DNA of 63,081 bases, the filler included, from Craspedostauros australis (lineage: Eukaryota): assembly GCA_030167865.1 (NCBI GenBank). It is 10 parts of 10 records of this genome, joined end to end, with 100 filler letters (N's around TTAATTAATTAA, not from the genome) between each part and the next. Parts side by side here need not be neighbours in the genome. Positions count along the whole stretch, not along the records: positions 51,734 to 55,824 come from JALAGF010002798.1; 9 more parts are not named here. The stretch is one strand, 5' to 3'. Below, piece after piece: positions 22,011-62,410 of the stretch. The notes beneath the pieces were generated by a model. The model worked only from the letters and a program-made list of their open reading frames with translations, had not been told where the DNA came from and searched no databases. Within the stretch, counting starts at the first letter, position 1; the number at the start of each line of letters is the position of its first letter. The translations under genes were made by a program, and so were the position numbers.

Positions 22011-22110
22011 NNNNNNNNNNNNNNNNNNNNNNNNNNNNNNNNNNNNNNNNNNNNTTAATTAATTAANNNNNNNNNNNNNNNNNNNNNNNNNNNNNNNNNN
22101 NNNNNNNNNN
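22011..22110. other. Artificial contig spacer N44-TTAATTAATTAA-N44 (also 24105-24204, 46448-46547, 48282-48381, 49958-50057, 51634-51733, 55825-55924, 60635-60734, 61878-61977)
   Basis: Identical 100-nt structure occurs nine times, and the 12-mer gives stop codons in all six frames. Confidence 0.98.
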
Positions 22111-22193
22111 AGATCGGTGAGTCTAATTTTGGTATTATGGGAGGTGCGGCAATCTAGGATAATACGACATAGTCGCACCCTCGATTCCTGACA
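22111..22193 (+). mobile_element. Terminus of the TGT...ACA element family (diverged copy), abutting Copia RNase H sequence
   Basis: GAGGTGCGGCAATC...AGTCGCACCCTCGATTCCTGACA matches the end of the 53234-53982 element. Confidence 0.75.
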
Positions 22194-22500
22194 ACAATGC
22201 AGTGATATCGAACACGACCATTGCAGACAGCTTGCTCCAAAAGAAGCATGTGGCAATCTCATTCCACAGAGTCCGCGAAGCGGTGGGAGCTGGAATCCTT
22301 GTTCCAGTCTATGTCCCGTCGAAGCGGAACTTTGCAGATATACTCACAAAGGCGCTGGCAAAGCCAGAACTCACATCATTTGTCACAACTCTGTTCTATG
22401 CAGGTCTACCTCGAGATCAAGGGGCGTGACAATTCTCACAGAATTCCTTACTTCTTACTTCTTTACTAATCGTACTAGTCAAATACTGGTCGGGGGCTGT
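22194..22500 (+). mobile_element. Ty1/Copia 3' fragment: RNase H C-terminus, polypurine tract and start of 3' LTR (LTR end unresolved)
   Basis: NAVISNTT...LQKKHVAISFHRVREAVGAG...NFADILTKAL is Copia RNase H, followed by AAGGGGCG and TGACA at 22427. Confidence 0.8.
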
Positions 22501-22829
22501 CTTCGGGCAGCACTCACAAATAAACAACAAGAGCTCCGACCAGGGCACGCAACAACGGGCCAATACGTCTTCCGTAGTTACTTGTACTGTTTGACATCTT
22601 TTGTCTCACCCTTTGGTTCGTCCTCGCTCGCCGTCTTTTGTTGATGTTTCGTGTGTGTGCATGTGTGTGTCGGATTGTTGTTGGCGCTCGGCCAGCGAAC
22701 CCAGAATACTGCCACAAGCAGAAACCAAACAGCGATCGAGCCTCGACTGCACACAAATACGTGCAGCACAATTACAACAATCCACCACAGACATACCGTA
22801 CTATACAACACCACATCAGACACATCAAG

Positions 22830-23658
22830 ATGATTTCTGCCACAGCACGTGTCGTCACATGCAGATCACTCCGTTGTGGACTGACACCGCCCACACGTAT
22901 CAGGACGGGACGAATGCAAGTGTCGATCCATCGACCATCAATGACGCCTCGCCAACCACTGGGCATGTCGATGAGCATCATGCCGACGACTGCCAATTAT
23001 GACTCAGTGAGAGACAACGAAGAAACAATGCAAACGCAGACAGGCAGCGCCCGCCCTTCGCTGGCTTCACCCGAACACAGTGTGATTGCTGACATTCTCC
23101 AGGACAACAAGGTGTTCATGGAAGGCTCGGCCATTGGCAAGGGCCTGCGCCACGCCACTCGCCATTTCCTCCGCAAGGAGCAGGCCATTGCCAAGACGAA
23201 TGGGTCCGATATCACCGACGAGGCATTCTACGTGTGCGATCTGGGCAGCATTGTGCAGCAGTACATGCAATGGAAGCATCGCTTACCCCGCGTTGCGCCG
23301 TACTTTGCTGTGAAGTCCAACCCAGATCCCGTCATCGTCAAGATGCTGGCAAGACTTGGGGCTGGTTTCGACTGCGCGTCGCTGGGCGAGATTACTCTCG
23401 TGGAAGAATGCTCCGCGGATCTGCCGCAGCGCCCCGACATCATCTTCGCCAACCCCTGCAAGCAGCGCTCGCACATCCAGGCCGCCATCAAAAAGAATGT
23501 ATGCAGGGTCACATTCGACAATGCTGACGAGATCCGAAAGTGCGCGGAGATATCCAAGGACATCGAGCTTGTGCTGCACATCGTCACGGATGACTCCGGC
23601 TCGGAATACCCACTCTCCACCAAGTTTGGTGCGACGCGCGCGCACTGGAGGGATCTGC
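22830..23658 (+). pseudogene. ODC: Ornithine decarboxylase, N-terminal half, interrupted by an LTR at 23659
   Basis: AFYVCDLG, LPRVAPYFAVKSNPD (PLP Lys), GFDCAS, IIFANPCK, VTFDNADE, KFGA. Similarity stops at WRDL, before the expected GVSFHVGS motif. Confidence 0.85.
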
Positions 23659-24104
23659 TATTAGCATTATGCTTTATTCCGCACAGCTCTCTCTCGTGTT
23701 CCAGCTTAGTTGTGCGTATGAACCGTATCCTGAACCAACACGGACCATGAAATGGTCACATTACGAGCGAATAGCTCGACGAGAAACGAAAATGAAGATG
23801 TACCAAGGTACTGGGTACCAGAGACAAGGTACCACGATACAAGAACGATACTGTGAGATAGCTACTGACCCAAACAAGTTGAACTTGAAGAGATCTAAGG
23901 ATCCCATCCGATGCTTGCAGAACAGAGGAATGCAAGAGCAGAGGCATGGACATGAACAGAGGTCAGAGATTAAGCTCACAACTCTTAAGTTTGTAATAAC
24001 ATTTGAGTTCCCAACAGACTACCAGTGAACGCCACCTTCTCGACCTGATCAATCGCAGAAGGACGCGTTCTTCCTAAGTTACAACCAATTCCTCAAGTCT
24101 AACA
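23659..24104. mobile_element. 446-bp LTR (TATTAG...CTAACA), reverse complement of 54306-54751
   Basis: Same length and about 96% identical by eye to the TSD-flanked copy. The contig ends exactly at the terminal CA. Confidence 0.88.
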
Positions 24105-24204: not shown

Positions 24205-25240
24205 TGGTCTGCTCGGTGCATGTCGAGACGGGGATGTTTCGACGGGGCACCTCCGGCAATGACGCGATCAACCTCCGTGACCATGTCCGCGTTGAGATCT
24301 GTGATGGCGCTGTATCCCATGATGGCTGCATTGGAGGCACATGGTGCTGTGGATGGCGGGAAGGAGAATTGGGCTGCACAGAATCAGACGGTGATGGCCA
24401 CAACGACGATGATGATTCGAAACATCCAAGGCATGGCTTGACGTGAGGTGAATGAAATGATCCTGATTGCGACGTCCTCTGAGCGTGTGATTGGTAGCGC
24501 ACTATTCGTTGCTCTTGTCTCTCCGATTCTTGTTGCCAAATGCTGATTGCAGTTGTCTCTTTTGCAAAGGCAGATAGCAAAGGTGCTGATAGATGCGCAG
24601 CTGTTGATGCTGTTGTTGATGCCGTCATGGAGACCCTTCCCTCAATGTTTCCATTGTGGTCAACGTTGAGACAGAATCATGAGATCCTGTCGGAATCGGG
24701 TTTGTGTCAACCATCAGTCCATTTTGTGAGCACCCTCGTTTCACGATCGTGACTGCAGGCGGGACTGAAGACGAACAACAAGATACCAATTGGCCAGTTC
24801 GCGCCAAAAACAACCATCACACTTTTTCGACCACATCATCGGTGTTCCAAGACAACACACATCCTCCAACGGAGGGTCACTTTTGAGACCGCGTCCTTGA
24901 AGTCGCACATGCAGGCCAGCATCCAATCACATGCGTCTATGCAACTATCTATGGCGACCGCTCGACAAGACACAACCTTCTCAAGCGTTTGAGTAACCTT
25001 CTCAAAGGATTGTCCAAGCCGTCGCAAGACAAGGCATGCACCCATCGTGGATGTTTTACTAGTGCCACCCACTACACCGTAATAACAAACTGAGCTCTGC
25101 ATCGCACCTCAGTCAAGTAATCATAAAACCAAGTTTACTACAATCACAAGAGATCCGAATGAACCTTGGCGATGCAAGGAACGCCACCACACTCTCCAAA
25201 GGCACGGCACAACGCAACGCAACGCAACGCCATCATCATC
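24205..25240. repeat. 1036-bp reverse-complement duplicate of 46548-47583 (unmerged contig overlap or haplotype)
   Basis: Identical ORF translations in mirrored positions (coordinates sum to 71788), and both copies lie at contig starts. Confidence 0.92.
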
Positions 25241-46242: not shown

Positions 46243-47353
46243 GGTGTCGTCGGTGGCAGTCTGGGTTGCTGTCTGATGACTGATGGCAGAAACCGTGGGT
46301 GTGGCTTGTTGGCCATGCAGCCTTGGCTGCGTTGCTGATGGTAGTTGTCTGTTGTTGTTGTGGTGACTGTCCGCTGCTGGGGTGGGGCGACGACCTCCTA
46401 GGTGGATTGTGGGTTGGGGTGTTGATGGTGTCATGCTGTTGCCAGCCNNNNNNNNNNNNNNNNNNNNNNNNNNNNNNNNNNNNNNNNNNNNTTAATTAAT
46501 TAANNNNNNNNNNNNNNNNNNNNNNNNNNNNNNNNNNNNNNNNNNNNGATGATGATGGCGTTGCGTTGCGTTGCGTTGTGCCGTGCCTTTGGAGAGTGTG
46601 GTGGCGTTCCTTGCATCGCCAAGGTTCATTCGGATCTCTTGTGATTGTAGTAAACTTGGTTTTATGATTACTTGACTGAGGTGCGATGCAGAGCTCAGTT
46701 TGTTATTACGGTGTAGTGGGTGGCACTAGTAAAACATCCACGATGGGTGCATGCCTTGTCTTGCGACGGCTTGGACAATCCTTTGAGAAGGTTACTCAAA
46801 CGCTTGAGAAGGTTGTGTCTTGTCGAGCGGTCGCCATAGATAGTTGCATAGACGCATGTGATTGGATGCTGGCCTGCATGTGCGACTTCAAGGACGCGGT
46901 CTCAAAAGTGACCCTCCGTTGGAGGATGTGTGTTGTCTTGGAACACCGATGATGTGGTCGAAAAAGTGTGATGGTTGTTTTTGGCGCGAACTGGCCAATT
47001 GGTATCTTGTTGTTCGTCTTCAGTCCCGCCTGCAGTCACGATCGTGAAACGAGGGTGCTCACAAAATGGACTGATGGTTGACACAAACCCGATTCCGACA
47101 GGATCTCATGATTCTGTCTCAACGTTGACCACAATGGAAACATTGAGGGAAGGGTCTCCATGACGGCATCAACAACAGCATCAACAGCTGCGCATCTATC
47201 AGCACCTTTGCTATCTGCCTTTGCAAAAGAGACAACTGCAATCAGCATTTGGCAACAAGAATCGGAGAGACAAGAGCAACGAATAGTGCGCTACCAATCA
47301 CACGCTCAGAGGACGTCGCAATCAGGATCATTTCATTCACCTCACGTCAAGCC

Positions 47354-48281
47354 ATGCCTTGGATGTTTCGAATCATCATCGTCGTTGTGGCCATCACCGT
47401 CTGATTCTGTGCAGCCCAATTCTCCTTCCCGCCATCCACAGCACCATGTGCCTCCAATGCAGCCATCATGGGATACAGCGCCATCACAGATCTCAACGCG
47501 GACATGGTCACGGAGGTTGATCGCGTCATTGCCGGAGGTGCCCCGTCGAAACATCCCCGTCTCGACATGCACCGAGCAGACCAGCTATGACACGATCATC
47601 TCTGTGTACGACGGCGCATGCAGAGTGCTGTCCTGCATCGCGTCTGGTGACGACAACGGCATGTGCGAGTTTTTCACCACCACCAGCCAGGCGGAGTGGA
47701 GAACGACCAAGGGCACCATGTACCACATCCGCGTGAGCGGATTCCAGGAGCTGCGTGGCACGTTCGGCGTGTTCGCCACAACCGGCGATGCGGCGCCGGA
47801 CAAAGACAAATGCGAAGACGCCATCAACCTCCGCACGGACGGCTCCGTCATGTTTGGTTCCACCATCGCAGGCGACTTTGAAGGGGCGAGGGATTGCATC
47901 GGAGGTGTGCACTCTTCGTTGGATGTTTGGTACCGCGTCGTCGGATCCGGCGACAGGATGACCGTCTCGACATGCTCTGCGGCCACCAACTTCGACACTG
48001 TGCTGTCCGTGTATATTTCACGAAGCAAGAGTTGCAACGACCTGCAGTGCGTCGCGGGTGACTATGACGATGGCGCATGCAGCAACACGGCCGCAAGTGC
48101 GCTGACTTGGGACACTGAACGGGATGTGACGTACTTCGTCCGTGTCAGTGGATTCGGCGATGACACGGGCAACTTCGGCATCCGTGTTGCGAAAACGGGC
48201 AGCCCAACCGTGACATCGAGACCCACTCGACCACCGAACCTCTCGCCGTCCGGCATGATCCCAACTGGCAACAAGTCTCTC
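47354..48281 (+). pseudogene. Disrupted secreted protein with beta-sandwich-like repeats (VSTC...DT..SVY); truncated by gap
   Basis: Signal peptide MPWMFRIIIVVVAITV*FCAAQF has an in-frame TGA at 47402. The frame changes near 47550 to two VSTC..T.(Y/F)DT..SVY..C..L.C...DD..C...W....Y..RVSGF repeats. Confidence 0.65.
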
Positions 48282-48381: not shown

Positions 48382-49957
48382 GAAAGACTGCGCCAAATGT
48401 TCATGAAAGCGTGCACTCGATGTTCGCAGACCGTACAGACCCTTGTGAATGATGAGGGGTCGTCCAGCAAGGTTCCCGAATTCTGGGCCAGCGGTGACAT
48501 AACAGCGCTCCTTTGTCTGTGCATACAAGAAGGCGTTTCCCACATCACCAGCACATACCTGAAGATCGTTCATGGCTGCAATGACGAATGCAATCCTCAT
48601 GGTTTCAAAGGCGACAACCCCGGAGTAGACATCCTCGATGGTGGGATCTGACATGTTGCCGTTCGCAACAAGGCGGGCCTTGCGCCGTAGGTCAAACTTG
48701 ACGTCGAAGATGATGTGGTACGGGATGTGCTGGTATGTCGTCAAGTCATCGTCCTCGCGGGGTAAGCGGAATGTCTTGTAGTCATTGATTTGGCGAAGCT
48801 CCTTGTCAATTGCTTCCTTCCATTGATGGTCGCCATTCATTCGATCGAGGTAGAGGGCGTGTCGGACGTTGTTGGGAACAAGCACACCAAACTTGTATCG
48901 GTTCTTGGGTTTTGCGGATGGCTTGCTGGCTGCTTGTACCAAGACTGTGTCCATTTGAAATCGCGGGATCCATTGGAAAGGTGTGGTATGTTCCAGTCCC
49001 CATGACAGTGCGTACTGGACAAGTGCATATGGGTCCTGGAGTCGGACTTCATCCACATGATGCCATGACTGGCTGTTGTTGCGCCACTTCACACGTACCA
49101 TGTCAGGATGTCGATGTGTCACAACTGACTGGATCATGTTGTTCATGCTTGTGTTATCAGTGTCGCTCGTTGTTGCGGCGATGGCATCGAGGGCTGTCAC
49201 AAGGTTCAGTTGGGCCATTTCGGTGTCGTTCAGTCCAGCACGGATGCGACGAGGTTGTGCATCACGGAGCATCATGGCATGTGAAGGTGTTGTGTTGACG
49301 GGGTAGAAGCGATTGCCATGACGGATGCCTGTCCCTTGCTTCTGTGACACGCCAAGGAAGGTGTCTGGCCCAATTTGTACAGGCTGGTCGTACTGTGTTG
49401 CCGCCAGTGTAATCGCTTTGACCTGTGTCCGGGTCATTCTGGTCTTCCATGGTGTTGGGTCTCCACGATCCTGGATGCGTTGGGACGTCCGTCGTTGAGT
49501 TCCCCGAGGAGAGCGTGATGCATTGGGTTTGCGTGGAACAGAAAGAGCCGAAGGAACAGCAGGAACCCCCCCTTTCGCCGGTGATGGCCGCGAGGTCGAA
49601 GCCGGGGAAGACTGCGGAAGGACGGGATTGGAACGAGGCTCACCAAGGGGCAGACGGGAAGGTGGAGGCCGGTCTCGAGGAACACGGGCAGGTTTGCGGT
49701 ATTGGAGAAGGCGACGGCTGGTAGGCATGCGTTGTGCGCCAAGAACGAGCGGCAACGGCGGTGGTGAGTGGTGGCGACCGGGATCGAGCTCGGGATGAAA
49801 GGAAAGGCGGTGGTTGGTTGCATTGGTGCGAAAGGGGCGCACGACGCTCCGCACAAGCACGCGTTGAGAGTGGTCCGTGAGTACGAAGTACGTCAGAGCA
49901 TCCCCGCATGATGGAGCCACACCCAGCCAATATCCAGTCCGCTCTTTGGGGTCAGGG
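48382..49957 (-). mobile_element. Ty1/Copia (CoDi-like) pol fragment: integrase C-terminus, chromodomain-like segment, reverse transcriptase N-terminal half
   Basis: GYWLGVAPSCGDALTYFVLT, YKFGVLVP, WKEAIDKEL, IFDVKFDLRRKARLVANG, AGDVGNAFLYA, KGLYGLRTSSARF. Confidence 0.93.
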
Positions 49958-50057: not shown

Positions 50058-51633
50058 GAAAGACTGCGCCAAATGTTCATGAAAGCGTGCACTCGATGTT
50101 CGCAGACCGTACAGACCCTTGTGAATGATGAGGGGTCGTCCAGCAAGGTTCCCGAATTCTGGGCCAGCGGTGACATAACAGCGCTCCTTTGTCTGTGCAT
50201 ACAAGAAGGCGTTTCCCACATCACCAGCACATACCTGAAGATCGTTCATGGCTGCAATGACGAATGCAATCCTCATGGTTTCAAAGGCGACAACCCCGGA
50301 GTAGACATCCTCGATGGTGGGATCTGACATGTTGCCGTTCGCAACAAGGCGGGCCTTGCGCCGTAGGTCAAACTTGACGTCGAAGATGATGTGGTACGGG
50401 ATGTGCTGGTATGTCGTCAAGTCATCGTCCTCGCGGGGTAAGCGGAATGTCTTGTAGTCATTGATTTGGCGAAGCTCCTTGTCAATTGCTTCCTTCCATT
50501 GATGGTCGCCATTCATTCGATCGAGGTAGAGGGCGTGTCGGACGTTGTTGGGAACAAGCACACCAAACTTGTATCGGTTCTTGGGTTTTGCGGATGGCTT
50601 GCTGGCTGCTTGTACCAAGACTGTGTCCATTTGAAATCGCGGGATCCATTGGAAAGGTGTGGTATGTTCCAGTCCCCATGACAGTGCGTACTGGACAAGT
50701 GCATATGGGTCCTGGAGTCGGACTTCATCCACATGATGCCATGACTGGCTGTTGTCGCGCCACTTCACACGTACCATGTCAGGATGTCGATGTGTCACAA
50801 CTGACTGGATCATGTTGTTCATGCTTGTGTTATCGGTGTCGCTCGTTGTTGCGGCGATGGCATCGAGGGCTGTCACAAGGTTCAGTTGGGCCATTTCGGT
50901 GTCGTTCAGTCCAGCACGGATGCGACGAGGTTGTGCATCACGGAGCATCATGGCATGTGAAGGTGTTGTGTTGACGGGGTAGAAGCGATTGCCATGACGG
51001 ATGCCTGTCCCTTGCTTCTGTGACACGCCAAGGAAGGTGTCTGGCCCAATTTGTACAGGCTGGTCGTACTGTGTTGCCGCCAGTGTAATCGCTTTGACCT
51101 GTGTCCGGGTCATTCTGGTCTTCCATGGTGTTGGGTCTCCACGATCCTGGATGCGTTGGGACGTCCGTCGTTGAGTTCCCCGAGGAGAGCGTGATGCATT
51201 GGGTTTGCGTGGAACAGAAAGAGCCGAAGGAACAGCAGGAACCCCCCCTTTCGCCGGTGATGGCCGCGAGGTCGAAGCCGGGGAAGACTGCGGAAGGACG
51301 GGATTGGAACGAGGCTCACCAAGGGGCAGACGGGAAGGTGGAGGCCGGTCTCGAGGAACACGGGCAGGTTTGCGGTATTGGAGAAGGCGACGGCTGGTAG
51401 GCATGCGTTGTGCGCCAAGAACGAGCGGCAACGGCGGTGGTGAGTGGTGGCGACCGGGATCGAGCTCGGGATGAAAGGAAAGGCGGTGGTTGGTTGCATT
51501 GGTGCGAAAGGGGCGCACGACGCTCCGCACAAGCACGCGTTGAGAGTGGTCCGTGAGTACGAAGTACGTCAGAGCATCCCCGCATGATGGAGCCACACCC
51601 AGCCAATATCCAGTCCGCTCTTTGGGGTCAGGG
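50058..51633 (-). mobile_element. Second copy of the same 1576-bp Copia pol fragment
   Basis: Same boundaries as 48382-49957. I see only two substitutions, one changing WRNN to WRDN. Confidence 0.93.
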
Positions 51634-51733: not shown

Positions 51734-51904
51734 CAACAACCAGCACCAGTGCAACAACCAGCACCAGTGCAACAACCAGCACCAGTGCAACAACCAGCAC
51801 CAGTGCAACAACCAGCAGCATCAATCCCATGGCAGTCACAGCAGCAACCACAAGAATTCTACTGGCAACCACTACAAGCAGCAAACAACAGAGCTTTCTG
51901 GTAA
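51734..51904 (+). repeat. 18-bp tandem repeat (CAACAACCAGCACCAGTG)x4.7, probably the 3' end of a CDS encoding QQPAPV repeats
   Basis: The repeat starts at the contig edge, and the frame continues QQPAASIPWQ...NNRAFW to TAA at 51902-51904. Confidence 0.7.
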
Positions 51905-53065
51905 AACGATAGAACGAGGAGAATAGCAGGACTATAATCTAATGAATACCACCGCCAGCAGCCGTGAACAGGCTGGGGTGGCGGGGCCACGGCCAATGCG
52001 TCTCGTGTAGATTCTGCATTCTATTTTTGGTTGTTGATGATGGTGATGTTTGTGATTTTGTGACAGAGAACGTGTTGTTCTTGTGCGTGTCTTGTCTCAT
52101 GTTGTTTGCTCATGTTGCTTGTGTGTGATGGATTGGTGGGCATCCCTTTTTGTACGGTGTGAGTGCATGTTGTTTGTAACTGTTGGTTGGTGATGGGCGC
52201 CTGATTTTGTACGATGTTTGTCAGTGTTGTTGGTGCATGTTGTCTTCGTTACTTCTGGAAGTCTTTCCGTTTGCGCACGATAGCACCATGTTGTCACACT
52301 GGTTGATGGGAGGAGGAACTTGTTGGCCTTGTGATTTGCTTGTGCCATTGTCAAAGGTGATACTCAGCAATTACATACAGGTCAGGGCACCAAACACTAC
52401 ACTTACTACGCCAGCAGGGTGATCAATCCGTCAGGTGAAGTTGGTTGGTGTTTGGTTGTTGTTGTTGCTAATATTAGTTGTAGTCAATTGATGATTGATG
52501 AGATTTGTGAGAACAAGATCTCATTCATCCTAGGTTGGTGAATTCTTGCACTATTCCTACTATCTTGCCCGATTCCACCTTGGTTCATCATCGGGTCTTC
52601 CTACTGTTCTGCTCAATGCCATCGTGGTCCATCATGCATTATTTCTACTTTGTTGGCCAAGGTTGTCATCCTGTTTTGCGCAGTATCTCGTGTTATTTTT
52701 CCTCTTGGGTCTTTCTTCATCTCTGTCTGATCTTGTCTAGTCTTGGACTCTCATGGTGTCCATATATCTCAGCCTGTCGATGTCAGCAGGGTGCATGCAT
52801 CATCCCTGACATCATTGGACTATCTCCTATTTGTTGTCGTCACGTGCTCACTGATGCACTCGGCGTCACTAGACATGTCAGTATACCATGACTATCACAG
52901 AATCTTAATTCCTCGGATCTCAGTGTCTGATCCTCTGATGTCATCTCTGATGTCAGTTCCTATGTCAGTTCTGATGACAGTAGAGCCTGAACACCATTCA
53001 CATCATCAAGACTCATTCAACTATAATATCAATCGAGTCGAATCACGTTTCAGTCATGTGTGATG

Positions 53066-54183
53066 TTAGCCTAATTTCGATCTAGATGTTGACACGTTGC
53101 GACACGCGATGTGGATGGGCAAGAGGCCATCATGAGAAGGCAGGAGCAGATTTCTGCCAGCGTTGCGCGCAAGGTATTGGATGATATCCAACTTATCACG
53201 TCGACAGGTGAAGTGGAGTGCGCTCATTCCATCTGTTGGAAATCCGGGGTAACCCAGTCTCTAGTAGTAGTCTCCGGTTACCTATTCCTGTTGTTGCATT
53301 GTTGGAACTGTGAGTACAACATCTCCATCTCTTTCAATTCCATTTGCCATAGCATACATAATCCACAGTAGCACACAGTCTTGCCCTTGCTCATGTAGTG
53401 CTGTCTCCTGCTTCATCATGTCATGCATCATGCACTTCATGTACATCTCATCTTGCATTTCAGTAGTTTCATTTCGCTCTACGCTCATGCAGTATATCTC
53501 GTAGCCGTGTACGTACCTCACCATGGGTCTCATGACGATCGATCCCACATCATCGTCAATTCCTCAGTATTCCTCTCACGCGACCATCATGTCACCTGCC
53601 GCGTCGCCATTCGTGCTCTTGGGTGACTAAGGGATCGCCTCCGTTTCTCCTTCTCACCGTTTCTCCCTTTCAGGTGACTCCGAAGTGTCTCTGTCCGTAG
53701 GGGCGCATCGACTTGGTTGGGATTTATTGTTCGCGTCGTCCATAGTTGTTGGCCCATGCGCGGATGCATCCCTAGTGGTAAAATCATAGGTTCGCCCTCA
53801 CTTCCATGACGGACCATGGACAGACCCTGTGATGCAAGACACGATTGGTTGCGTGAGGTGGGACAGGCAATAAGGTTGTCCGAGTGTGATCAACAATGTT
53901 GAATCCATTGAGTCGTGAAGATATATTGAGAGGTGCGGCAATCATGGGTATCTTGACAAAGTCGTACCCCCGATTCCTGACATCCATCTTTGGAAAGGGC
54001 ATCGACGTCAACACCGCGTTGTTTAACCAGGAATCGACCGACATTGAGCGTGCCAGAGCAGCATGCCTTCTGGAACAAGGATCTGCGACTGCTGTCAACA
54101 AGTTTGTTGACATCAGGGTTGCCTGCATCTTTCAGATGGTCCTCTATCAATGGAACAACTCCCACAATGACTGCATGGAACAA
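53066..54183 (-). pseudogene. Ankyrin-repeat gene remnant split by a 749-bp insertion
   Basis: Removing 53234-53982 and one TCCATC restores the frame SLFQKACCSGTLNVGRFLVKQRGVDVDALSKDG-MSALHFTCRRDKLDIIQYLARNAG...DGLLPIHIAC. Confidence 0.8.
53234..53982. mobile_element. Non-coding 749-bp element with TGT...ACA ends, imperfect 18-bp inverted termini and 6-bp TSD (TCCATC)
   Basis: TCCATC at 53228-53233 and 53983-53988. The left end TGTTGGAAATCCGGGGTA matches the reverse complement of the right end, TGTCAGGAATCGGGGGTA, at 14/18 positions. Confidence 0.88.
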
Positions 54184-54305
54184 CCCATCTACTATGGGAC
54201 AGGAGGAGTGGCTTGGCAGGCCTTGTGTTTTGGATATGGTGGAAGCAGTGGAACAAATGAAGCAGTCAAACTCAGCTGTTGTGGATACAGCAAGGAGTCA
54301 GAAAT

Positions 54306-54751
54306 TGTTAGACTTGAGGAATTGGTTGTAGCTTAGGAAGAACGCGTCCTTCTGCGATTGATCAGGTCGAGAAGGTGGCATTCACTGGAAGTCTGATGGA
54401 AACTCAAATGTTACTACAAACTTAAGAGTTGTGAGCTTAATCTCTGACCTCGGTTCATGTCCATGCCTCTGCTCTTGCATTCCTCTGTTCTGCAAGCATC
54501 GGATAGGATCCTTAGATCTCTTCAAGTTCAACTTGTTTGGGTCAGTAGCTATCTCACAGTATCGTTCTTGTATCGTGGTACCTTGTCTCTGGTACCCAGT
54601 ACCTAGGTACTTCTTCATTTTCGTTTCTTGTCGAGCTATTCGCTTGTAATGTGACCATTTCATGGTTCGTGTTGGTTCAGGATACGGTTCATACACACAA
54701 CTAAGCTGGCACACGAGAGAGAGCTGTGCGGAATAAAGAATAATGCTAATA
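54306..54751. mobile_element. Solo LTR, 446 bp, TGTTAG...CTAATA, 5-bp TSD GAAAT
   Basis: GAAAT at 54301-54305 and 54752-54756. A second copy lies at 23659-24104. Confidence 0.88.
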
Positions 54752-55696
54752 GAAATGAAATCGAAACCAGCTCACACAGATGATTGACCACAAAATCATA
54801 CACATACGCAGCCAAAGTCATTGTCAATGCCAATACCAGTGACAAGAACAGCAACAATGGTGATAGTGATGATGGTGAGAAATCAAGACATTGAGGTCAG
54901 GTCCATGGATTGACGTACAGCAACTAAATGCAGCAATCAGATGAAACCAACACAGAATCATTGCATTTCATGAATGGCATCACTTCAAAGACAGATAGCA
55001 ATGCATCCACACATGGACTGTCTTACAAGAGGCTTGGATTGAATACGACTCTGAATGGTGATCATGGAGGAATGAACAGGGAGGAAGAAATGGGCACACG
55101 AACTCGCGAGCAGTATTCCAATCAGACACAAGGAAACGATGCGAGAACAGTGACCAGCAACTACGAGATGAAGAGACACAGACACAACAAGATGCCAATG
55201 GAGATGAAAGAACAAGAATGCAAAGAGCAACCTGTGAACGGAAGTGCCAGAGAGGCACGTGAGTATGTTGTAGGTTGCGTGGTCTAGAGTGCGTGTCCAG
55301 TGTGCGAAGTGCACCGGAGTTTCACCAGGTCGTGACTGTGGGTGGACTGATTTGCACAAGATCATGTGAGTGAAGGAGAACATGCCAGGAGATGACACAG
55401 ACAGCGACGAAATGAGGGTTGGACACAACCATGGTACCAACTGCGATGGTATCGCATGAACTCTACACTCTCTAAGCATGTACTATCAGGGTCCGTCGGG
55501 TGTGCTTCTATTGGTTCTACTGCAAATGAATTGCATGAATTAATATTTCTCCCGCAGCTTCTGATAGTGGCTGAATGACAAAAACAGAGTGTGCCGTGCC
55601 GATCGGAGTAGTCGAAATTCGCAATATGGATAATTCTGTTTGAATTTTCGAATCGTGATTGGATATCGCTACTTTTATGGATTTACACTGTCCCCC

Positions 55697-55824
55697 TGTC
55701 AGGAATCGGGGGTACGACTTTGCAAAGATACCGTATTCTGCCGCAGCTCCCATGAGGACTGACTGGAACCGGAATGGTATTAAGTGCAAAGATACCCACG
55801 ATTGCCGCAACCCCCAATAGCATC
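55697..55824 (-). mobile_element. Third terminus of the TGT...ACA element family, opposite orientation, cut by a gap
   Basis: Begins TGTCAGGAATCGGGGGTACGACTTTG, the exact reverse complement of 53957-53982. Confidence 0.82.
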
Positions 55825-56107: not shown

Positions 56108-58977
56108 CAGAGAGGAGCGAGAGAGCATCTCGCGTACCGACTCATAGTCAGAGACCAAATCTACGAAACAGATTGAAGCACCGAGAGCATCGTGCAAGAG
56201 AACTGGTGTACACTGAGAGGATCGGAGTAGCCAAGTAATGAAATAGCAAACGAACAACTATCAACCAACACCATCTTCCACGATCGTAGGTTACCAATCA
56301 CGAAACTTGCCAACACGTTTATAAACAATAGATCAGGGCGAGCCCGTGGATCGGATCATGCGAGGAAGACGAACATCATTCAAGAGCTGCAGGCTGAATG
56401 AGCGAGGAAGAGGAATTGAAAGACATCCCTCTGTCCCAACTGGCTATCAAGCAAGAAGAAGATGCGAGTTAGGCTCGACTTCAAGAACAGAAGGAAGCAG
56501 CCGCGGCTACTCTCCTATCAGGTGCAGAGGCAAGCACAATCGACGAGACCGAAGAGGAACGATCTGCGAGACTACATCACGAGGAGAAGAGCATTCTCAA
56601 GGCGAGCAAGCAAGAGGAGACTGGTGTGACGGAGAGCATTCGCACAGCCAAACGAAGTGGTAAAAGTGAGACACCACCAGGAGGAGAATTTGTGATGAAA
56701 ACAATCTCCGCGAAACTACAAGCGAAAAACGAAGAATCGACAACACAGAAACAGACGGAAATCAAGGGCGCGAGCGCACCAACAACGAAACAACAAGACA
56801 AGATGGCGACATCAGCCAACATGAACAAGCGGCATATCAAGGCGCCGATGTTCAGCGGTGAACAGGAAGACTACAGCGCATGGGAGTCCCAAGCGAAGGC
56901 ATACGCTCGTGCACAGAAGACGAGAGACGTGATGTTGGGCAAGACCAAGGTGCCAACAGTGAGCGAGATCGCGGCAGCCGCTGGCGATGACAAGGAAGCG
57001 ATGGAGGAAATCTACGAGCTGGGATGCGACTGCTTCAGCGATCTAATCCTCATGATGGATGCAGAGAAAGGAAAAGGCAAGCAGGCCATCCAGTACATCA
57101 ACCAATGCGTCTCCGACGATTACCCCGAAGGAGACCCACACGCAGCGTGGAACGTTCTCGCGGAGAAGTTCCGTCCATCCGATGCAGCAACGAAGATCAA
57201 GCTCAAACATCAATTCAACAACAAAAAGATGAAGAGAGACACGGACCCCGACATCTACATCACGCGACTTGAGGGTCTACGCTCGCGTCTCCACGATGTC
57301 AAGTACGAGATCACAGACGAGGAGATGATCATGCAAATCCTCAGCACGGTGAGCAGTGAATACAAAACTCACATCGTGAACTTCCAACACCAACTCACGT
57401 TCAGTCCAGATGTAGTCACCATCAACGCAATCAGAGGAGTACTCCGCACAGCACACGCTACTCATCAAGGAGGAAAGGCGTACGTTGACGACTTTCAAGA
57501 CAGCAACATGAAGAGCAACGACACCGGCTTCACAAGCACCGGTAACTTCAAGGGGACCTACCACAACTGTGGTGTGTATGGTCACAGATCCGCCGATTGC
57601 CCAGAACGCAAGAAAAACAACAACAACAACAAAATGAACGGAAAGCGCAACAAGGGAAGCGGCTTCAAGGGCAAATGCAACTACTGTGGCATCTTCGGAC
57701 ATCGCGAGGCGGAGTGCCGAAAGAAGAAGTTCAACGATAACAAGAAGGCCAACGAACAGGCCAACACGGCAACGGAAGGACACGACAAGAGCGGGCACGA
57801 GATGGTACTCTCGGCGAAAGACATGCTGCTCTGCATGTTGGTGTCCGATGACTACATCGAAGACTCCTTCTTCGATAACTTCGAATGCGTCAGGAGTGAC
57901 GACGAAGTGCAGGACGATGAGATCGTCCTGGAGTGGCTCAGCGAAGAGCCCATCATCCACGAGGTGGATCCAAGACGCGAAGTGAGCTACGAGTGCTGCT
58001 TCAACGCGAACAACCTGATTGGTCCATACGGCGACGGAGCTGAGATGGGCAACAAGGCCATTGACATCGACATCGAGGAGGCCATGAGTGCAGAGGAAGA
58101 CAACGCCAACAAAGACGGCGCGAATCAAGACAACGACGACGTCTCCGGAGATGAGACGAATGGCGGCGAGGTGCCGCCTCCTCCAGCAGCAGGAAATGAG
58201 AGAGTGGGCATCTTCGATGAAGATGACAGTGACAAAGCCGAAGGTCGTCCGAGCAACACCTTCAATCCCCACAAACATGTCGTCTATCCAATCAGAATCC
58301 AATTCCCAGCGGAACCAAACCCAAGAAGAGTCGACGACATCTACCAACTCGACACATTCCCAAATCCAACGGTTACTGCAAAGAGAATGCAGAAGCAACT
58401 CATCTACAATGCAGTACTCACAACTGCACTGCCAATGTTCCTAGGGTTCGTGAGCAAACCATTGAGATACACATGGGTGAACATGGTGGGCACCATCCTG
58501 TCCAAGAACTTCAAATCGATTGAAGTGATCCTTGCCAACGCAGCCATCCTCAACCGACTATTGGAGGCAGCAGAAGAGGAACCATTTTCGGAATTGGATC
58601 TACACTACATCCTTGGAGGATGCATGTAGGTGCTCCTGCGCGAGCGACCACATGTTGTACCATACGACACAGTGACCGGAGTTCATCGAAACAGCACGGT
58701 TCCATCGGACTTCGCAGAACTACCCAGTGACGATGACATGGATGACGAAGACCACCATCCATAAAACGAAGATGGAGTCCACAAAGATGAAGAGGAAGGA
58801 AGCTTCAATGATGAAATAGCTGCAGCCGCCGTGGAGCAGCTCCACGAACTGAGCACCAAGTACAAGGACAAGGTCAACAAGGACACCTGGGGCAAGTGCG
58901 GGAAACTCAATACTGTCTGGCCGCTGTACGTTATTAGCTCCAGCCAATGCCTAGCCCAGAAAGAAGCATGCCAATAG
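55925..58977 (+). mobile_element. Degenerate Copia-type retrotransposon: possible 5' LTR remnant, gag ORF 56803-58629 with two zinc knuckles, no recognisable pol
   Basis: PMFSGEQEDYSAW, GDPHAAWNVLAEKF, DPDIYITRLE (Copia gag). Knuckles YHNCGVYGHRSADC (degenerate) and CNYCGIFGHREAEC. In-frame stops at 58627 and 58762. LTR and PBS boundaries are uncertain (near 56315-56340). Confidence 0.8.
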
Positions 58978-59522: not shown

Positions 59523-60634
59523 ATGGCCGTCATCGGTTTGAAGGGCAAACGCCAGGGAGCCTCAGGCTCCACTTCACCCACCTCGATGGTGATGATCTCC
59601 ATCCTCATCGGCATCGTCTTGCTGCAATTCTGTTTCCCCATGAGAAATGATGACATCCAGTCCGTGGATAAGGCAGTCGCCAGTCAGGCGAGGGTCGTCG
59701 GCCAGTCAGCTGTCGAGGTACCGTACGATCCTTTGGCGATCCCAGCAGGCCGCGCGCAACCGTTGCCGTCCATTCGAACCACCAAAGAGGAAGAGCAACA
59801 AATAGTTCGCAAGCAATACGGAGGTAAAGGTACGACGAATTGGCGCGAGAGTTGTTGGATTGGAGACTGGAGGTTTGGATGGATGGATGGATGGATGGAT
59901 GAGTGTACGAATGTATGAATGCATGGATGCACACGTGGGTGCTTGGGTGGATGCAGGGATGATGTTCAAATCGAAGTTGCTGCTCTACGATTTTAGGTAT
60001 GCTGGATGGAGTTTGCCTTTCCTCCTGAGTTCAGGACAGCAAATGTCGTGGTGTGCTATGTTGATGTGTCCTCTCTTGTTGTGCTCCGCCACCCAACTTC
60101 TCCTTCAACTCACGCCTCTCTCCAACTCTCCTTGATGCTTCGTGCAATTCACTTTCTGTTGCCTCGCCATGCCTCGCAATGCCTCACTGATGTCCATCAT
60201 CTTTTTTCCGATCAGGCGACAAAGCACATCTCGGTGGATTCACAGAGCTCGATCTCATGGGAGTGTCACCAAGAACATGGAAGTTCATGATCGAGTACAT
60301 GGGAATCAAAAGCATGGTGGATGTGGGTTGTGGAAAGGGGACCAGCACGAGCTGGTTCCATGATCATGGCGTGGATGCGTTGTGCGTGGAGGGATCGCAT
60401 GATGCCGTCCTAGCCAACGTGCTTCCAAACAAAGACACGCATCTCGTGGAGCACGACTTCTCGCGTGGTCCGTACTGGCCAGATAAGTTGTACGATGCCG
60501 TGTGGGCAGTTGAGTTTCTGGAACACGTTGGCAGGAACTATCAACACAATTACATTCCCATCTTCCGCAAGGCCGCTTACTTGTTCGTGACTCATTCGAC
60601 GTGGTCGGGATGGCACCATGTGGAAGTGCATGAC
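59523..60634 (+). CDS. SAM-dependent methyltransferase-like type II membrane protein; exons 59523-59829 and 60216->60634 (cut by gap)
   Basis: TM helix MVMISILIGIVLLQF. Intron 59830-60215 joins YGGKG-DKAHLGGF. Motif I MVDVGCGKG and YDAVWAVEFLEHV are present. Confidence 0.85.
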
Positions 60635-62170: not shown

Positions 62171-62410
62171 CTTGGAATCCTTCCACAGATTGAAGAGNNN
62201 NNNNNNNNNNNNNNNNNNNNNNNNNNNNNNNNNNNNNNNNNNNNNNNNNNNNNNNNNNNNNNNGACGTCCACGATGCTTTTGTCGGATCTGGTCTTGGGC
62301 TTCGTAAGACTGCCGAGCGTGTTGAGGCACATGTCGTTGGCCCTGGAGCCAAATCTCATGGAAGATTTGCTATCCTCATCCTCCACCGAGATGGAGGGAT
62401 CGTCTGCCAT
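62171..62410 (-). CDS. Possible first exon of an unknown gene (contains an N gap)
   Basis: ATG at 62410 (MADDPSIS...), frame preserved across 66 Ns, and an AAG|GTACGT donor at 62170. Confidence 0.35.

Follow-up and report, generated by a model that had tools for sequence, protein, structure and literature searches.

A 749-bp insert between two copies of a six-base duplication in an ankyrin-like reading frame of Craspedostauros australis is probably a solo LTR

What kind of mobile element has interrupted the ankyrin-like reading frame on a small contig of Craspedostauros australis? The interruption lies in a stretch of 63,081 bases from assembly GCA_030167865.1 (the window, the whole stretch of DNA that was analysed), which is made up of ten contigs with spacers of 100 bases each, of the form N44-TTAATTAATTAA-N44. 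The original prediction had presented the inserted DNA as a candidate for a new family of integrase-type DNA transposons and had named an unusual solo long terminal repeat (LTR) as the alternative. The contig that carries the insert is 4,091 bp long (51734-55824). The contigs do not stand in true scaffold order, because the segment 46548-48281 overlaps the start of the segment 24205-46447 over 1,036 bases at 100% identity on the opposite strand. Two further segments, 48382-49957 and 50058-51633, differ from each other at two positions and at no others. Ordinary nuclear genes, among them those for DNA polymerase epsilon, a protein kinase, LRR proteins, MsrA and a sugar transporter, are found on the long contigs, and pieces of Copia elements are found on the short ones. 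These Copia pieces comprise gag, integrase-RT and RNase H fragments, none of which is linked to the insert sequence. The window holds no tRNA genes. A search of the insert's contig against Rfam gave no match inside the insert, the sole match being a sub-threshold snoRNA outside it.

The interrupted frame is read on the minus strand, and the insert divides it into two halves. When the insert is removed together with one copy of TCCATC, the halves fuse in frame (...ALSKDG, then MSALHF...) and form an open frame of 159 codons, as the original prediction had claimed for an ankyrin ORF; with the insert retained, the three frames of the stretch contain 13, 22 and 15 stops. The distal half carries the ankyrin signature (Pfam Ank, E = 7e-6, 26.5 bits against a cutoff of 21.1), and the proximal half has no relatives among longer proteins. 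In our own reading of the translation, the DG-x-x-ALH joint has the spacing of the next repeat (DGLLPIH), which supports a site that held TCCATC only once before the insertion. At its head the restored frame lacks a start methionine, and for this reason it may represent an exon or part of a gene, perhaps a dead fragment.

The insert itself is a real mobile-element insertion with clean bounds and a 6-bp target duplication. It begins with TGTTGG and ends with CTGACA. Because a T follows both copies of TCCATC, the borders can be read either as a 6-bp duplication around an element with TGT...ACA ends or as a 7-bp duplication around a 748-bp element; we prefer the 6-bp reading for its canonical TG...CA ends. 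The two terminal arms are complementary at 14 of 18 positions (78%), and pairing at this level or better had a frequency of 1.5e-5 among 200,000 random pairs of 18-mers from the window. Beyond the terminal 18 nt, the two ends have nothing in common. The whole window was also searched for TG...CA pairs with a spacing of 100-3000 bp, a flanking duplication of 4-6 bp and terminal complementarity of at least 12/18. The scan returned 13 hits, among which the insert alone reached 14/18 and the other 12 stood at 12-13/18. Thus far the description in the original prediction holds: the 749 bp, the flanking TCCATC duplication and the 14/18 inverted ends are all present. A further element of that description, a hairpin near the left end, stands in part: the sequences GGTAACC (53248-53254) and GGTTACC (53276-53282) exist, but their folding is no better than that of shuffled sequence (z = -0.33; 78 of 200 shuffles fold equally well or better).

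No ORF inside the insert is longer than 100 aa, and the 100-aa ORF has no protein relatives. By BLAST, the interior of the insert shows no similarity to any other part of the window, Copia contigs included. The window contains no second full-length copy of the 749 bp, and no gag-pol region between two copies was seen in it. The coordinates of the insert, of the reading frame and of the related features are collected in Table 1.

Table 1. Features of the interrupted frame, the insert, its related termini and the Copia fragments in the window.
Feature	Position	Strand or orientation	Remark
Right terminus, related copy	22111-22193	+	cut by contig start at 83 nt; adjoins RNase H end of Copia pol
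Copia pol C-terminus	22163-22429		polyprotein homology
Integrase C-terminus and RVT_2 (Copia)	50058-51632 and twin segment		Pfam
Distal half of ORF (DGMSALHF...), ankyrin repeat	53069-53233	-	Pfam Ank
Left TCCATC, target-site duplication copy	53228-53233	direct repeat	
Non-coding 749-bp insert, TGTTGGAAATCC...CGATTCCTGACA, probable solo LTR	53234-53982	putative +	
Left terminal arm, imperfect inverted repeat	53234-53251	+	TGTTRNR, 0 mismatches
Right terminal arm, imperfect inverted repeat	53965-53982	+	YNYAACA, 1 mismatch; end common to two other copies
Right TCCATC, target-site duplication copy	53983-53988	direct repeat	
Proximal half of ankyrin-like ORF (ends ...ALSKDG)	53983-54297	-	alone, no Pfam family
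Right terminus, second related copy, inverted	55697-55824	-	cut by contig end at 128 nt
Retrotran_gag_2 (Copia gag) and zinc knuckle	56473-58626		Pfam

The right end of the insert recurs in the window. The sequence CGATTCCTGACA is found exactly, three times, with ends at 22193 (+), 53982 (+) and 55697 (-), and three such matches were obtained in just 1 of 100 shuffles. Alignment showed one and the same sequence in all three copies through ...CGATTCCTGACA and no relationship directly after the final A. Their last ~25 bases are near-perfectly common, and they also have in common a GGAGxTGCGGCA block. In BLAST comparisons with the insert, the copy at 55697 matched at 94% over 36 nt and the copy at 22193 at 80% over 56 nt. 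The related termini that had been predicted at these two places are therefore right ends with the same final base as the insert. A common end base followed at once by divergence in three copies points to independent integrations by an end-specific enzyme, and three independent insertions fix the right boundary of the element. The left end has a single occurrence in the window. The two additional copies are truncated because their contigs end there and not for a biological reason; contigs that end in both extra copies are the behaviour of a short-read assembly at a multi-copy repeat. Judged by these shared termini, the insert belongs to a multi-copy family.

The three copies occupy different sites, namely an ORF, a Copia pol region and unannotated DNA. 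Beside the copy at 22111-22193, four of five Copia polyproteins match, with the homology starting at 22190 in three of them and at 22163 in one. That this copy is itself pol sequence was considered and rejected, as the pol homology begins only at 22190; because most of the pol matches begin at that position, the copy lies inside another retrotransposon. In the copy at 55697, a subterminal TGCGGCA...GGTATCTT block is duplicated internally. A connection between this copy and the gag ORF at 56473 by way of contig order was rejected, since that order is not a true scaffold. A TGG-type primer-binding site follows none of the three right ends, a result that is uninformative for solo or 3' LTRs and lends an LTR no positive support. 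The terminal pattern AGTCGYACCCYCGATTCCTGACA, in exact or degenerate form, had 0 matches in metagenome contigs and 0 in viral contigs.

We conclude that the insert is probably a solo LTR left by an LTR retrotransposon, most plausibly one of the Ty1/copia type. An element of this kind, resembling the CoDi elements of diatoms, would have been integrated into the ankyrin-repeat frame by its DDE integrase. The integrase would have cut the two strands with a stagger of 6 bp, and gap repair would have duplicated TCCATC. Unequal recombination between the two LTRs may later have deleted the gag-pol interior, with a single 749-bp LTR inside an intact duplication as the outcome. The sequence itself shows the boundaries, the duplication, the restored frame, a right end conserved across the family and the agreement of both ends with the LTR integrase consensus; we infer that the insert once flanked gag-pol, to which superfamily it belongs, how it is oriented and that recombination took place.

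The termini fit this reading at both ends. The general consensus for recognition of LTRs by integrase is TGTTRNR...YNYAACA in the available part of PMC3601003; the 5' end of the insert (TGTTGGA) agrees with it without mismatch, and the 3' end (CCTGACA) with one. The same part of that source quotes the 5' motif of Ty1 as TGTTGGAATA, which is identical to the first 8 nt of the insert, and describes such repeats as longer in Pseudoviridae. As had been predicted, then, the TGT...ACA ends are of the type typical of recognition by a retroviral-type DDE integrase. Because TGTTRNR...YNYAACA is a perfect palindrome, either orientation fits equally well (1 and 0 mismatches on the reverse strand), and the plus orientation of the insert is a tentative one, assigned solely from the TGTTGGA start.

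The length of the insert is equally in keeping with an LTR. CoDi LTRs of diatoms span 153-844 bp (PMC2806351, in the part available), a range that includes the 749 bp found here, and the lengths listed for CoDi2 and CoDi3 are 614-843 bp (PMC8147415, tables S10/S11). The size of the duplication requires more attention, as Copia elements usually make 5-bp duplications and the insert does not have one. In the tables of full-length diatom LTR elements (PMC8147415, Tables S10, S11), duplications of 4, 5, 6 and 8 letters are listed: five letters form the majority, many rows have four and two have eight. By our hand count, six letters are given in 2 of the 60 rows for T. pseudonana, both of them CoDi6.2, and in 3 of the 84 rows for P. 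tricornutum (CoDi4.4, CoDi5.1 and CoDi5.1-like A), two of which have extra bracketed letters. A total of 5 six-letter rows in 144 counts against the solo LTR to some extent. Nevertheless, these six-letter rows among diatom CoDi elements mean that 6 bp is no anomaly, and the duplication is inside the 3-6 bp range that a review gives for LTR elements (PMC10045372). The original objection that Copia usually makes 5-bp duplications is thus correct as to the majority in diatoms but is weakened by these rows, and the solo LTR that was named as the alternative need not be called unusual.

Overall, the insert agrees with every LTR feature tested, namely ends, duplication, length and non-coding content, which supports the solo-LTR alternative. 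It resembles the solo LTRs of diatom CoDi elements in its TG...CA ends, its length, a duplication within 4-6 letters, the absence of coding sequence and its insertion into a gene or another element. This likeness is one of features, and Copia coding fragments are present in the same window. It differs from them in that 6 bp is a minority duplication size and in that no partner gag-pol was found in the window. In P. tricornutum, LTR elements make up ~75-80% of the TE content and are mostly solo LTRs, according to the available part of a preprint (bioRxiv 10.1101/2025.10.24.684338). The internal duplication of the subterminal block in the 55697 copy counts against the solo LTR, as such repeats occur in DNA transposons also. 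The interior's lack of resemblance to the Copia contigs of the window and the failure of the shared terminus to match metagenome or viral contigs weigh on the same side.

For comparison with undoubted Copia elements, metagenome contigs were scanned with a Copia RT alignment composed of the window fragment and 24 of the 150 representatives listed. The scan yielded 80 metagenome loci. In the loci of at least 4 kb there were 21 direct-repeat pairs, of which just 2 had flanks on both sides. One metagenome contig (L052) holds a complete Copia relative with both flanks, identical LTRs of 236 bp, an ORF of 1402 aa and a purine tract before the 3' LTR; it is the only interpretable complete element among the 80 loci. 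Its termini, TGTCAG...TTTTACA, pair at 12/18. Because an undoubted Copia LTR pairs at 12/18, the 14/18 of the insert is not beyond an LTR. This relative and the insert are alike in their TGT...ACA ends and in an extended imperfect inverted repeat, whereas its duplication is 5 bp (GTTGT) and that of the insert is 6 bp. Two other loci (L077 and L074) were dropped because their boundaries are ambiguous, and the repeat pairs at contig ends (L036, L038, L049, L065, L064, L021, L076 and L044) gave no usable LTR ends or duplications; several of these pairs read as coding sequence, for example L036. The terminal motifs of the insert were absent from the 80 Copia-bearing metagenome loci, which also counts against the solo LTR. 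Matches to TGTTGGAAATGC in Copia loci were rejected as termini, as they are codons of the RT motif DVGNA. Among viral contigs, a single-protein search with the Copia RT found no relative. One viral contig (L001) with a weak match to the C-terminus of pol was dropped as unrelated; its long ORFs overlap on both strands, and it has no LTR-like repeats.

Against the solo LTR stands the proposal with which the locus was first described, that the insert is a non-autonomous cut-and-paste DNA transposon of a family undescribed in this lineage. In this scheme, an integrase-like or IS481/IS3-like DDE transposase would bind the imperfect 18-nt terminal inverted repeats (TIRs) and cut with a 6-bp stagger. 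We regard this as unlikely. The combination of TGT...ACA ends, an 18-nt imperfect TIR and a 6-bp duplication is what such an enzyme could leave, the insert is non-coding as a non-autonomous element would be, and the duplicated subterminal motif of the 55697 copy suits a transposon as well. The ends do not settle the matter: the TIRs of Ginger elements begin with TGTNR too, so that the ends alone cannot separate LTRs from Ginger-type transposons. However, each of the described candidate superfamilies fails in at least one tested feature, a Pfam scan of 33 ORFs of the window revealed no transposase-like one, and the ends of the insert have no common sequence past 18 nt. The prior is also low, as the passages found in two diatom TE papers contain no mention of Ginger or IS3EU.

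The comparison with each superfamily makes the disagreement specific. Ginger1 and Ginger2/TDD resemble the insert in their TGTNR termini, and a Gypsy-integrase-like enzyme belongs to Ginger. They differ from it in longer TIRs (40-270 bp in Ginger1 and 50-180 bp in Ginger2, against 18 nt) and in shorter duplications (4-bp CCGG/CCGT in Ginger1 and 4-5 bp in Ginger2, against 6 bp), as given in the available part of PMC2836005. GingerRoot/IS3EU elements, described in lycophytes, bryophytes and animals (PMC6839031), share the 6-bp duplication and occasional TG..CA termini with the insert (PMC10045372, PMC6839031), and an integrase-related enzyme belongs to GingerRoot. Their TIRs, by contrast, are 100-150 bp long, their ends are mostly TA..TA and their length is 3.9-12.9 kb (PMC6839031). 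In the IS481 group, prokaryotic IS481 elements mostly have 6-bp duplications, and IS481EU elements have TGT...ACA (TNT..AYA) ends and short TIRs, mostly <50 bp (PMC10045372). Unlike the insert, IS481EU elements make duplications of roughly 4, 15 or 25 bp; their autonomous copies have a single DDD/E transposase, they are known only in parabasalids (PMC10045372), and none of the 33 ORFs scanned is IS481-like. The insert thus lacks at least one of the defining TIR, terminus and duplication features of each described superfamily, and neither a DNA transposon nor a new type of family, as originally proposed, is supported. It is very improbable that the family of the insert is a non-autonomous offshoot of some integrase- or IS481-like DDE transposon lineage, so far undescribed, in a diatom-like alga, with 6-bp duplications as in most bacterial IS481 and inverted ends of only ~18 nt; such a lineage, if it existed, would fall outside both the IS481EU of parabasalids and the GingerRoot/IS3EU of plants and animals.

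The probable solo LTR could also have acquired a second role. However it was mobilised, the ankyrin gene might now use the insert as a spliceosomal intron, although we consider this very doubtful and a speculation prompted by the border sequences. On the coding (minus) strand, the borders read ...GATGGAT|GTCAGG...CCAACAG|ATGGAATG and so have the form GT...AG, in which GT is supplied by the element end (T|GT) and AG by the ACA end together with the G of the duplication. Splicing at these positions would remove exactly 749 nt; in our own reading the frame would stay open, and the duplication would add Tyr-Gly. The donor GTCAGG looks weak against the general splice consensus, which counts against an intron. 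Introners are recognised by many near-identical copies that form spliced introns in different genes, and here the window contains a single full copy and no further one within a gene. In addition, the ankyrin ORF has neither a start codon nor relatives and may be a dead fragment. There is a precedent in that solo LTRs of a Copia family have been reported to generate functional introns (PMC12130899, in the part available).

That the insert is not a transposable element at all, its TCCATC repeat and inverted ends being due to chance and its body to filler or duplicated DNA or to an assembly artefact, is extremely improbable, because the right terminus occurs twice more with the same end base, a 14/18 terminal match is rare by chance and excision exactly restores the 159-codon frame, even though the window contains the complete 749 bp a single time and belongs to a fragmented assembly.

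The meaning of the locus depends on which of these readings is adopted. If copies of the family carried a transposase without a reverse transcriptase, integrase- or IS481-type DNA transposons would extend to a new eukaryotic lineage, and such transposase-only copies would bear on the link between the integrases of LTR elements and DNA transposases. As a side feature of a DNA transposon, TGT...ACA ends combined with a 6-nt duplication would let insertions splice out in frame. Most likely, the insert represents an LTR family of a known kind rather than a new kind of DNA transposon. As a solo LTR it would be a routine addition to the LTR families of an algal genome rich in TEs, of use only in annotating repeats and in illustrating how an insertion with a six-base duplication can cleanly disrupt a gene.

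A complete Copia-type element was found in one of the metagenome contigs, at locus L052, where two 236-bp LTRs that are identical to each other (TGTCAG...TTTTACA) enclose a 1,402-aa ORF, a tract of GAGGAGGAA lies ahead of the 3' LTR, and the target-site duplication is the 5-bp GTTGT. The insertion looks recent. In many Copia RT genes, the codons of the RT motif D-V-G-N-A (gaTGTTGGAAATGC) match the first 10 bases of the 749-bp insert in the ankyrin ORF, TGTTGGAAAT; the metagenome loci with this overlap are L007, L013, L021, L022, L024, L028 and L032. We take the match to be a coincidence, a product of the way in which the loci were selected.

Copia sequences also occur on several contigs of the window. 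Ahead of the gag ORF of 718 aa stands ...GTCCCAAC TGGCTATCAAGC, resembling an LTR end plus a primer-binding site, and no pol was found downstream of this ORF on its contig. The integrase C-terminus and RT are encoded on both of two 1,576-bp contigs, which show mismatches only at positions 699 and 778 and probably represent haplotypes or a pair of nearly identical copies. On another contig, the stop codon of a Copia pol is followed by GGTCGGGGGC and then by TGTCTTCGGG...GTTTGACA, a stretch of about 99 bp containing AAATAAA and located directly upstream of an ornithine-decarboxylase-like ORF. This stretch, with its TGT...ACA ends, may be a very short 3' LTR.

The ten contigs are joined by 100-base spacers (N44, TTAATTAATTAA, N44), and being neighbours across such a spacer does not show that two sequences are linked. 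A run of 66 N also lies inside the window, and one contig starts with a perfect tandem repeat (18-bp unit CAACAACCAGCACCAGTG, 4.7 copies). Two contigs that the assembly left unmerged overlap in reverse complement over 1,036 bp with 100% identity.

Features and their coordinates in the window and in the metagenome contig
Feature	Coordinates	Remarks
Complete Copia-type element	L052:128-6752	metagenome contig
Putative LTR end and primer-binding site	56435-56452	upstream of gag ORF
Copia gag ORF	56473-58626	Retrotran_gag_2 + CCHC knuckle
Methyltransferase ORF	60191-60634	same contig as Copia gag ORF
Integrase C-terminus + RT contigs	48382-49957; 50058-51633
Stretch after pol stop codon, with candidate short 3' LTR	22430-22596
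First spacer	22011-22110
Eight further spacers	24105, 46448, 48282, 49958, 51634, 55825, 60635, 61878
66-N run	62198-62263
Tandem repeat	51734-51817	contig start
Contig overlap	24205-25240; 46548-47583
447-bp repeat	23658-24104; 54306-54752	opposite orientation
Terminus copy with duplicated block	55697-55824	minus strand
Insert and borders	53228-53988	coding (minus) strand

In one copy of the insert's right terminus, the subterminal block TGCGGCA...GGTATCTTTGCA is duplicated in tandem by comparison with the 749-bp copy. Read on the coding strand, the borders of the insert are GT...AG (GATGGAT/GTCAGG...CCAACAG/ATGGA, with slashes at the borders), and hypothetical splicing there would remove 749 nt, keep the frame and add two residues.

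The two copies of a 447-bp repeat share 96.4% identity; one adjoins the truncated ornithine-decarboxylase-like ORF and the other adjoins the head of the ankyrin ORF. A contig end cuts one of these copies, so the repeat may be longer than 447 bp, and a larger repeat could enclose the ankyrin ORF itself.
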